Virus record (IMG/VR): IMGVR_UViG_2522572023_000006
Strand: one strand, 5' to 3'
Origin: a virus
Taxonomy: Duplodnaviria; Heunggongvirae; Uroviricota; Caudoviricetes
DNA length: 50,140 nt
The position numbers were made by a program, and so were the translations under genes. Each line of letters begins with the position of its first letter. The first letter of the stretch is position 1. The notes beneath the pieces were generated by a model that worked only from the letters and a program-made list of their open reading frames with translations, was not told the DNA's origin and searched no databases. This document shows positions 3,445 through 5,029 of the stretch, piece after piece.

Positions 3445-3714
3445 TTACTTCATCCCGCCAATATTTTCCCACGTCCCGTCAGCACGCAGGATTTGCAGCG
3501 GTCTTACCACGCACTGTATCTGCTTTTTATCCGCATCCAGTATCACCACCTGCGTGATTACCCTGTCCTGCTCCGGGATAATGCCATTCTCATCTGACTC
3601 CAGGATGTCTGCCGGTCCCAGTCGCAGCTGTGCTGTAGGCGACTGCACGTGTTCACGGCCATCATGCTTTCCGCAACCACACAGACACTGCATAAGTTTT
3701 TTTAGTATATTCAT
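3445..3714 (-). CDS. Small tail-fibre-associated protein homologous to the C-terminal domain of the upstream side tail fibre
   Basis: 89-aa product from internal Met of ORF 3445-3846 (start by frame arithmetic). Its start overlaps the stf stop. Residues about 28-89 align with the last about 65 residues of Stf (shared RLGPA.I.E...NG, LQ.R..DG.W). Cys-rich N-terminus (CLCGCGKH). Confidence 0.5.
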   Translation of the reverse strand: MNILKKLMQCLCGCGKHDGREHVQSPTAQLRLGPADILESDENGIIPEQDRVITQVVILDADKKQIQCVVRPLQILRADGTWENIGGMK

Positions 3715-3715
3715 G

Positions 3716-5029
3716 TCATTCTCCTGTTCTGCCTGTATCACTGCCCACTTCATCCAGCCCCTTAACATCCTGCCACGGCCCGTCACCAAACCTGACCTGC
3801 AAATGCTGAAACAGCCCCTGAACCTGTGTGGCATCTTTGGGGTCAAGAAAGGTCAGTCCGGTGATGAGCGCACCATCTGTACCCGGGAACCAGCCATTGC
3901 TGTTTGTCTCAATAATGCTCGCCGGCCCCAGACGAAAACGGATTTGTGTCTCCCCCGGGTCGCCCTTCGGTCCCTGAGGTCCGGTTGCCCCCACCGGGCC
4001 AGCCGCACCTGTTTCTCCTTTCGGTCCCTGTGGGCCTGCCGGGCCTGCCGCACCGGTATCTCCCTTTGGACCCTGTGGACCTGCATTTCCCGTCAGACCG
4101 GTCTCTCCCCGCTCTCCCCTGTCACCTTTCGGCCCCTGCGGGCCTGCCGGACCAGCATCACCTGCCGGTCCCCGTTCGCCGGTTGCCCCGACAGGGCCGG
4201 TGTCACCGCGCTCTCCCTTATCACCCTTCGGCCCCTGAGGACCCGCGGGCCCCTGTTCCCCCTTTGGCCCGGGAGGTCCCACCACGGTGGGGATTCGGTT
4301 TACGGCCTCTTCCGCCGCTATCCTGCTTTGTTCCGCTGACTGTGCGCTTTCTGCTGACTCCCGGGCTTTTTCTGTTGCGGTCGTTGCATCCCTGGCTGCA
4401 TTACCGGCTGCACTTTCTGCCGTCTTTCTTGACAATTCAGCTTCTGCTGCACTTTGTGATGACTCACTGGCTTTTTGAGCGGCCGCAGAGGCCGAGGACG
4501 AGGACGCCTCCTCTGACTGCTTTGCAGCGGCTGCACTTTCTGCCGCCTGCCGGGCTGACTCCGATGCATCCCCTGCTGAAGTGTCAGCATTTGCAGCGCT
4601 CTCTTCTGCCTGACTGGCTGATATGCCGGCATTCCTCGCTGATGTCTCCGCCTCTCCGGCATTCTTCTTCGCCTCCTCTGCGTGACGCGCCGCTTCTTCC
4701 ACCATCAGTTCAAAACGACGCATTGCCTCCGGCCGGACGTCATCCTCCGACATGGCACCGAGAAAATCATTCAGCGTCCCCGGTTGAGAATCTTCATACA
4801 CGGTGATGGTCCCGGCATGTGATGGCGGGAAGCCCTCCACCAACAGAATGACGCTGTACTGACCGTACTCAACGTCCATGCTGTAACGACCGGCTTCATC
4901 CGGATTTTCAGAGGCCACCGTGTTCACCACCACCGTGCTGCTGGTCCGTCTGGCTTTCAGTTGAATGGTGCAGTTCTCTACCGGTTTTCCTGTGCCGTCT
5001 TTCAGTACACCTGAAATCTTTACTGCCAT
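3716..5029 (-). CDS. stf: Side tail fibre protein (Stf-like) with collagen-like repeat region
   Basis: N-terminus MAVKISGVLKDGTGKPV matches lambda Stf; Ala/Ser/Glu-rich low-complexity segment; about 37 Gly-X-Y triplets; distinct C-terminal tip domain. Confidence 0.8.
   Translation of the reverse strand: MAVKISGVLKDGTGKPVENCTIQLKARRTSSTVVVNTVASENPDEAGRYSMDVEYGQYSVILLVEGFPPSHAGTITVYEDSQPGTLNDFLGAMSEDDVRPEAMRRFELMVEEAARHAEEAKKNAGEAETSARNAGISASQAEESAANADTSAGDASESARQAAESAAAAKQSEEASSSSASAAAQKASESSQSAAEAELSRKTAESAAGNAARDATTATEKARESAESAQSAEQSRIAAEEAVNRIPTVVGPPGPKGEQGPAGPQGPKGDKGERGDTGPVGATGERGPAGDAGPAGPQGPKGDRGERGETGLTGNAGPQGPKGDTGAAGPAGPQGPKGETGAAGPVGATGPQGPKGDPGETQIRFRLGPASIIETNSNGWFPGTDGALITGLTFLDPKDATQVQGLFQHLQVRFGDGPWQDVKGLDEVGSDTGRTGE
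3964..4290 (-). repeat. Collagen-like Gly-X-Y coding repeats inside stf
   Basis: Translation GPPGPKGEQGPAGPQGPKGDKGERGDTGP... repeated; DNA shows a periodic GGNCCN pattern. Bounds approximate. Confidence 0.8.

Follow-up and report, generated by a model that had tools for sequence, protein, structure and literature searches.

Why would a phage whose tail fibre already ends in a tip domain encode that domain a second time, as a small protein of its own? The question is raised by a 50,140-nucleotide (nt) stretch of viral DNA (IMG/VR record IMGVR_UViG_2522572023_000006, Caudoviricetes; hereafter the window), in which the side tail fibre gene stf is followed directly by an open reading frame (ORF) of 89 amino acids (aa). 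The C-terminal part of this small protein is a paralogue of the fibre's own C-terminal knob. We find strong purifying selection on the small gene and a strict linkage, at about 1:1, to fibres that end in such a knob. Our favoured but still tentative answer, to which we give somewhat less than an even chance, is that the small protein acts on the fibre knob as an accessory factor, made late and essentially non-structural. The locus is a known two-gene side-fibre module of Shiga toxin (Stx)-type and other lambdoid prophages of attaching-and-effacing E. coli, and the pair of fibre gene and knob-only gene has already been published and annotated and is not new. Added here are the selection on the small gene, its own Shine-Dalgarno sequence, its ~1:1 pairing with the knob, a collagen-free partner fibre in Salmonella and trace peptides in virions.

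A collagen-like fibre and a free-standing copy of its knob

The stf product is 437 aa long when counted from the ATG at 5029, the same start as used by the Prokaryotic Genome Annotation Pipeline (PGAP). Its domains follow the order PfN, PCoil, collagen and PfC (Table 1), so that the architecture read by the initial annotation was borne out: a lambda Stf-like N-terminus, a low-complexity Ala/Ser/Glu segment, a collagen-like shaft of about 37 Gly-X-Y triplets (exactly 37, unbroken) and a distinct C-terminal domain. The PfN domain matches the N-terminal domain of Ur-lambda Stf, the "Tail fiber protein" chain of PDB 9e7m. In the collagen domain, 18 of the 37 triplets have Pro at X, and 22% of the residues are charged. 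The knob scores 123.8 bits against the 64-position profile of PF06820 (Phage_fiber_C, PfC; gathering cutoff 25 bits), aligning across profile positions 1-64, and belongs to this family.

The same domain order, with a low-complexity coiled coil and a single (Gly-X-Y)n stretch between PfN and PfC, defines EPclA (Ghosh et al. 2012, PMC3368898), and many Sakai/EDL933 prophages carry copies of the same size, 437 aa with 111 collagen residues. EPclA (ECs2717) was reported to be a trimeric dumbbell by size-exclusion chromatography with multi-angle laser light scattering, circular dichroism and electron microscopy (EM), with a collagen triple helix that melts at 42 C, a trimeric alpha-helical PfN-PCoil part and a trimeric PfC that re-nucleates the collagen helix on refolding (PMC3368898). 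The recombinant protein trimerised without other phage proteins, and the isolated knob was not expressed unless fused to thioredoxin (PMC3368898). The window fibre is more than 90% identical to ECs2717, from which we assume that it is also a trimeric dumbbell with a collagen triple helix.

In being a small C-terminal trimer that registers and refolds a collagen helix, as shown for EPclA (PMC3368898), PfC resembles the foldon of T4 fibritin, collagen NC1 and the V domain of Scl2, although it has no sequence or detectable fold match to any of them. The knob is of interest for protein engineering as a tiny collagen-nucleating trimeriser. To our knowledge, none of the foldon, NC1 and Scl2 V systems has a separately encoded copy of its nucleation domain.

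The small ORF provides such a copy. Its residues 28-89 score 123.4 bits against PF06820, again over profile positions 1-64, and they belong to the same family as the fibre knob. When the two are compared directly by BLASTP, 24 of 62 residues are identical (39%, E=4e-12); the similarity is far beyond chance, and the relationship proposed by the initial annotation passes the test of pairwise alignment. The whole protein (positions 1-89 of 89) matches phrog_576 with E=8.5e-59 and is of the type of ORF68 of phage Sp5, discussed below. The only other match in PHROGs is phrog_13758, both families being labelled "tail fiber protein", and PGAP names the product "phage tail fiber C-terminal domain-containing protein". 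Besides PF06820, no Pfam match was found at E<=0.1, nor any match in NCBIfam or to a Tfa family (PF02413 and relatives). The protein is therefore not regarded as a homologue of Tfa, and the ORF does not fall into a known tail fibre assembly family, an identity that would have spoken against the initial reading. What remains is a knob alone with a short N-terminal helix, without tail-attachment parts. Monomer models by AlphaFold2 (AF2) are beta-rich and of low confidence, with a predicted local distance difference test score (pLDDT) of 64 for the small protein and 63 for the fibre knob. Foldseek searches of PDB and BFVD with the AF2 models gave no match below E=0.1, and a PDB sequence search with the small protein was empty.

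The small gene was initially described as starting in an overlap with the stf stop codon. The junction in fact reads TGA (3718-3716), C (3715), ATG (3714-3712), with a spacer of 1 nt, and a Shine-Dalgarno sequence for the small ORF lies inside the last codons of stf (Table 1). The description of its N-terminus as Cys-rich holds for the window, where C10, C12 and C14 are present, but this is partly strain-specific: C10 comes from an R10C variant of the common form MNILKKLMQRLCGCGKHD, the usual E. coli motif RLCGCG has two Cys, and Salmonella orthologues have two, one or none. The hydrophobic residues 3, 4, 7 and 11 are conserved. A conserved metal site or cystine knot formed by the Cys motif was considered, and it is weakened by the loss of the cysteines in Salmonella orthologues.

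Both genes have close counterparts in earlier work. By in-frame deletion of phage Sp5 genes in K-12 lysogens, Mondal et al. 2016 (PMC5155283) found the collagen fibre ORF67 to be essential, and immuno-EM placed it at the tail end. The 89-aa knob-only ORF68 was listed among the non-essential late genes, with a "reservoir" role proposed for it (PMC5155283). The Sp5/933W-type Stx podophage copy NC_004913 shares the TGA-C-ATG junction, and its identity to the window is 92% for the small protein and likewise 92% for the fibre knob. EPclA/EPclB, ORF67/ORF68 of Sp5 and gp61/"gp59" of phage phi24B are the same gene types as the window pair. Nothing essential differs between these modules and the window, whose copy lies in a non-Stx prophage and carries R10C in the small protein. 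Both genes are also already annotated by PGAP in a RefSeq genome of E. coli O145:H28 to which the locus is 100% identical, and as a finding of a genome scan the locus is ordinary. A literature search by locus tags (ECs1124, ECs0845 and others) returned nothing functional.

Conservation, distribution and expression of the small gene

To compare loci we used 80 related viral contigs retrieved from IMG/VR and selected by the small ORF. The ORF is 89 aa long in all 82 loci recovered. The TGA-C-ATG junction with its 1-nt spacer is kept in 78 of the 80 IMG/VR loci, the two exceptions having an insertion sequence element upstream, and it is also kept in the podophage. Over the 46 loci that have a full-length stf, the ratio of non-synonymous to synonymous polymorphism (pN/pS) is 0.13 for the small gene, with 0.09 in its knob part and 0.30 in its N-terminal 27 aa; in the fibre it is 0.26 for the knob and 0.54 for the coiled coil. 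These ratios show strong purifying selection on the small gene. Together with the constant length, the junction and the orthologue peptides detected by mass spectrometry (see below), this refutes the suggestion that the gene is a remnant. We note that about one third of the IMG/VR loci (L003-L082) have an intact small ORF next to a truncated or frameshifted stf. The cause may be decay of the prophages, sequencing errors at homopolymers of the collagen region, or our having selected loci by the small ORF.

In the phage collection, the small ORF was found in 296 records and the fibre knob in 296, with an identical breakdown by organism and 597 places in total, or about two per record. These counts show that the small ORF is strictly linked to knob-ended fibres at about 1:1. 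The family is narrow. A profile search of 1.84 billion representative proteins gave 82 clusters, almost all of them from E. coli, E. albertii and C. rodentium, plus a Salmonella enterica lineage (P0125, P0176, P0177). A scan of one genome per species recovered E. albertii only, plus two probable contaminant contigs. Neither search found distant, better-studied relatives. The two contigs, from a Clostridiales metagenome-assembled genome (L084) and from Xanthomonas pisi (L086), carry a knob segment with 93-100% protein identity to the fibre of the E. coli phage in the window, and they are almost certainly contamination of public assemblies.

The Salmonella lineage separates the knob from the collagen shaft. 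In these Gifsy-like prophages the fibre is collagen-free and consists of PfN, a coiled coil, a Pf2 repeat and PfC, and after it comes a knob-only ORF of 79 aa that shares 14-23 nt with the fibre gene and has a hairpin behind it. What the pairing requires is therefore the knob rather than the collagen shaft. When E. coli is compared with Salmonella, the knob cores of the small proteins are 65% identical and those of the fibre knobs 38%, and the paralogues are 30-40% identical to each other. This pattern indicates that the duplication is older than the E. coli and Salmonella lineages, and that evolution is slower in the small copy than at the fibre tip.

The protein is made. In the supplement to a 2026 cryo-EM and proteomics preprint on phi24B (bioRxiv 10.64898/2026.04.10.717836), two peptides unique to the small ORF ("gp59"), VITQVVILDADKK and ADGTWENIGGMK, are reported from virions purified on sucrose gradients. 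There they are represented by 3 spectra each, versus 2267 for the fibre and 23 for Lom, an admitted contaminant. The authors had added hypothetical frameshift fusions ("Fusion_6159_FS1/2") to the search database, and the corresponding entry is labelled "Spike or just gp59?". The main text of the preprint does not discuss the small protein (bioRxiv 10.64898/2026.04.10.717836). The detection of these peptides shows that the protein is made during lytic growth. Their counts relative to the fibre indicate that it is at most a trace component of the virion, which argues against a stoichiometric structural role.

Possible roles of the small protein

We suggest, tentatively as stated at the outset, that the small protein acts on the knob of the fibre beside which it is encoded. 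With its ribosome-binding site inside the last stf codons and a spacing of 1 nt, it is made from the late operon at the same place and time as the C-termini of the fibre. Its PfC fold could then contact the conserved core of the fibre PfC, and this contact may aid or police trimer formation or maturation of the tip. Such a protein would raise fitness in nature and yet be dispensable for plaque formation on K-12. It would be a positional analogue, and not a homologue, of lambda Tfa. In lambda Stf-Tfa, Mu S-U and P2 H-G (PF02413), as in the window, a small gene stands directly after the fibre gene and is tightly coupled to it in the same late operon, and the N-terminal domain of lambda Stf is homologous to that of the window fibre (PF08400; PDB 9e7m). 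Unlike the Tfa pairs, however, the small protein of the window has no PF02413 domain and is paralogous to the tip of its own fibre. That fibre trimerises alone, and deletion of ORF68 in Sp5 is tolerated. A chaperone, one of the roles offered by the initial annotation, thus survives only as a possible dispensable helper, given the non-essential ORF68 (PMC5155283), the recombinant fibre that trimerises by itself (PMC3368898) and the lack of a match to an assembly family.

Several points weigh against this answer. In two experimental systems the small protein was not needed for the fibre to assemble and work (PMC5155283, PMC3368898), which makes a helper role quantitative at best; the non-essentiality of ORF68 was tested in K-12 hosts with rough lipopolysaccharide only (PMC5155283). 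The AF2 monomer models are weak (pLDDT 63-64), and the interaction between fibre and small protein is one that we infer. The small protein has no similarity to the known assembly-protein families in Pfam, NCBIfam and PHROGs. In addition, we know of no well-studied fibre chaperone that is a homologue of the domain it serves. The matter reaches beyond this prophage. Such fibres are carried by most Stx-converting phages and by many effector-carrying prophages of enterohaemorrhagic and enteropathogenic E. coli, E. albertii and C. rodentium, so that any tuning of fibre assembly or binding affects the spread of Shiga toxin genes and type III effectors.

A second possibility, which we consider unlikely, is that the small protein forms its own trimer and works as a free soluble knob, released at lysis or acting at the envelope, and that it binds a surface structure. 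It might mask receptors on debris or vesicles, sparing progeny from being lost there, or exclude related phages. This would parallel Llp of T5 or the excess fibre of adenovirus. The retention of a trimerising knob fold without a tail-attachment domain is what a free knob would need, and late expression, an at most trace presence in virions and dispensability on laboratory hosts also agree with it. The 65% identity between the E. coli and Salmonella proteins would suit a conserved ligand. However, the protein is just 30-40% identical to the fibre knob that it should mimic and does not co-diverge with it. It has no signal peptide, as K5, K6 and R10 fall within the would-be hydrophobic h-region, and the Cys is lost in Salmonella variants. 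PADLOC gave no hit, and the tight translational coupling to stf better suits a role in assembly. The more specific form of this idea, in which a tail-less trimeric knob released at lysis masks a conserved envelope ligand on debris, vesicles or neighbouring cells, seems to us quite improbable. If true, it would make the protein a soluble paralogue of a receptor-binding domain that serves as a decoy or exclusion factor, a kind of phage accessory protein that would be new. That the small copy has changed more slowly than the fibre tip speaks against both a receptor-mimicking decoy and a distal receptor-binding cap.

A lipoprotein, such as an exclusion factor of the Cor/Llp type, was considered separately and rejected. 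We required by inspection a positive n-region, an h-region of at least 7 hydrophobic residues and a lipobox Cys. Residues 5-10 read KKLMQ(R/C), leaving no hydrophobic h-region before the L-x-G-C at 11-14, and the lipobox Cys is lost in the Salmonella proteins P0176 and P0177.

It is likewise improbable that the small protein is a minor structural subunit, a trimer of which would sit on the fibre knob, or at another site of the virion, and alter host range as a distal cap or adaptor. In favour of this are the two unique peptides in purified phi24B virions and, in the same data, a low-molecular-weight gel sample (EA1829) in which the fusion entry has 25 spectra and the fibre entry 24, which would suggest a free species of ~10 kDa. 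Further support comes from P0147, a database protein in which four PfC-like modules are stacked in series. Nevertheless, the spectra reported there are at contaminant level (3+3 versus 2267 for the fibre and 23 for Lom), the small protein is unmentioned among the phi24B proteins resolved by cryo-EM, and its counterpart is non-essential in Sp5. It also evolves more slowly than the fibre knob, the opposite of what is expected for a distal receptor-binding piece. P0147 itself is a distant collagen-like protein of 565 aa with a long Gly-X-Y run and four tandem modules of ~75 aa, the C-terminal halves of which resemble the last PfC strands (VVVLDAD...ILxVRRADGTWxEI). Stacking of PfC-like modules along a fibre thus seems feasible.

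The intragenomic reservoir of Mondal et al. 2016, in which the small ORF is spare coding sequence that replaces the fibre knob by recombination and so gives variants of the tip, appears to us very doubtful, even though an example of the exchange exists in nature. A 553-nt deletion between microhomologies of 11-14 nt (4162-4175 and 3609-3622) has fused a shortened collagen shaft in frame to the knob of the small ORF. The product is protein P0059 (locus L091, 1-420), a rare chimera found in 2 samples. A chimera of the reciprocal type, P0121, joins the N-terminus of the small protein to a fibre-type knob. The deletion chimera shows that the reservoir route is physically possible, and to that extent the alternative tip module suggested by the initial annotation has an instance, although an anecdotal one. 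It leaves unexplained the conserved start codon, ribosome-binding site, N-terminal peptide and length, features that a reservoir would not need and that are nonetheless conserved (pN/pS 0.13-0.30), and in phi24B the protein is made. The coding segments of the two knobs have ~50% DNA identity with identical runs of 5-7 nt and none longer than 7 nt, which disfavours homologous exchange. Chimeras are very rare among thousands of sequences, and no mosaic of the small-ORF type was seen in the fibre knob across the 46 full loci.

Programmed frameshifting or read-through, by which some ribosomes would shift +1 from stf into the frame of the small ORF and yield a fibre with two tandem knobs, is highly unlikely. 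No stop interrupts the frame of the small ORF over the 44 codons before its ATG, and the +1 relation of the frames, computed from coordinates, is common to E. coli and Salmonella. The phi24B authors allowed for such products by including the two fusion entries in their search database, and one database protein, P0178, has this form, its fibre knob running into the upstream-open frame of the small ORF and on into MNILKK... Against it, Mondal et al. found no frameshift signal (PMC5155283), no junction peptide appears in the accessible part of the phi24B supplement, the small ORF has its own strong Shine-Dalgarno sequence, and in Salmonella the ATG is the first start codon that the frame offers after a stop. 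P0178 stands alone among the sequences and may reflect a 1-nt indel or an error in sequencing. An A7 run on the minus strand at 3697-3703 (codons L4-K5-K6) reads as an A_AAA_AAA heptamer. The ATG precedes it, the podophage and Salmonella copies have not kept it, and it is probably irrelevant.

Cassette switching was also raised by the initial annotation, and it is not supported. An invertible cassette was rejected because both knob copies lie on the minus strand, their coding segments have only ~50% DNA identity, and the prophage has no serine invertase. As initially noted, no invertase is nearby: the RefSeq annotation of the whole 48-kb prophage has a tyrosine integrase (47638-48933) as the only recombinase, accompanied by an excisionase at the far end. 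Recombination sites expected to flank 3445-3850 did not appear: around this segment only short inverted or direct repeats at chance level (12-20 nt) were found, and a repeat search of 3200-5200 gave only collagen-codon repeats in addition to such matches. The arrangement resembles the Mu Gin/G segment, P1 Cin and e14 Pin systems in having two adjacent, alternative-looking C-terminal fibre modules, whereas the window has no serine invertase or inverted crossover sites, keeps both modules on the same strand and gives the second module its own start. A second fibre C-terminal coding copy just downstream of the fibre gene also recalls the Mtd variable and template repeats (VR/TR) of Bordetella phage BPP-1. 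A diversity-generating retroelement was rejected, as the copies in the window are ~50% identical instead of near-identical with adenine-specific differences, no reverse transcriptase is annotated in the prophage, and the downstream copy is translated.

Surroundings of the fibre module

The window is a complete lambdoid prophage of ~48 kb, integrated between ydfJ and rspB. Positions 1-5100, the part searched, are 100% identical to E. coli O145:H28 strains RM12761 and RM13516. The prophage is a non-Stx one of the lambdoid group at ydfJ in O145:H28, and its fibre module adjoins the type III effector gene nleC. The features of the module and its neighbours are listed in Table 1.

Table 1 Features of the stf/small-ORF module and neighbouring genes (positions in the window)
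Feature	Positions	Residues	Strand	Evidence or remark
J	5760-9239		minus	
lom	5094-5693		minus	
Terminator-like hairpin 3' of lom, directly 5' of stf	5046-5067		minus	
stf, EPclA-type collagen-like side tail fibre	3716-5029	437 aa	minus	Stop codon 3716-3718; PGAP WP_025380386.1; PF08400, PF01391, PF06820
PfN domain, lambda Stf-like N-terminal tail-attachment domain	4625-5029	aa 1-135	minus	PF08400 E=1.1e-68; PDB 9e7m E=2e-51
PCoil, Ala/Ser/Glu-rich low-complexity segment	4280-4624	aa 136-250	minus	A37, S23, E16 of 115 residues
Collagen domain	3947-4279	aa 251-361	minus	37 uninterrupted Gly-X-Y triplets, 111 aa; PF01391
Fibre PfC knob, trimerisation and tip domain	3752-3943	aa 363-426	minus	PF06820, 123.8 bits
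Tail C-terminal to fibre PfC knob	3719-3751	11 aa	minus	
Shine-Dalgarno AGGAG of small ORF, within last stf codons	3721-3725		minus	6 nt 5' of ATG; read from sequence
Small ORF, stand-alone PfC paralogue	3445-3714	89 aa	minus	Stop codon 3445-3447; PGAP WP_001023381.1; phrog_576
Small-protein N-terminus, predicted amphipathic helix (residues 3-12) then CLCGCG motif	3634-3714	27 aa	minus	Low-confidence AF2 helix
Small-protein PfC domain	3448-3633	aa 28-89	minus	PF06820
14-nt microhomology (G-P-A codons)	3609-3622		minus	Direct repeat; 13/14 shared with 4162-4175 in collagen region
Intrinsic terminator hairpin and U-run closing the stf/small-ORF unit	3404-3430		minus	RNA fold -23.1 kcal/mol, z = -4.4
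nleC, type III effector gene	2029-3015		minus	Zinc-protease effector; PF13678, E=8e-113

Terminator-like hairpins on the minus strand follow both J (5723-5742) and lom (5046-5067), and the unit itself is closed by the hairpin at 3404-3430. The pair thus has a terminator at either end, and Q-mediated antitermination is presumably needed for its expression. The closing hairpin accompanies the small gene into podophages, and a similar hairpin lies 3' of the Salmonella copy.

Directly 3' of the small ORF, and overlapping the terminator hairpin, PGAP/RefSeq annotates a frameshifted "tail assembly protein" pseudogene of 77 nt (3367-3443, minus strand). It shows no similarity to the prophage's own gpI, and its DNA matches in other phages carry no informative annotation. 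A tfa gene that was replaced may have left it behind, or the annotation may be spurious.

Further downstream, a 63-aa ORF without a family match (3044-3235, minus strand) precedes nleC. In Salmonella and other E. coli loci, the position of nleC is taken by SopA/NleL-like and NleG-like effector genes, which makes this a cargo slot behind the terminator of the small ORF.

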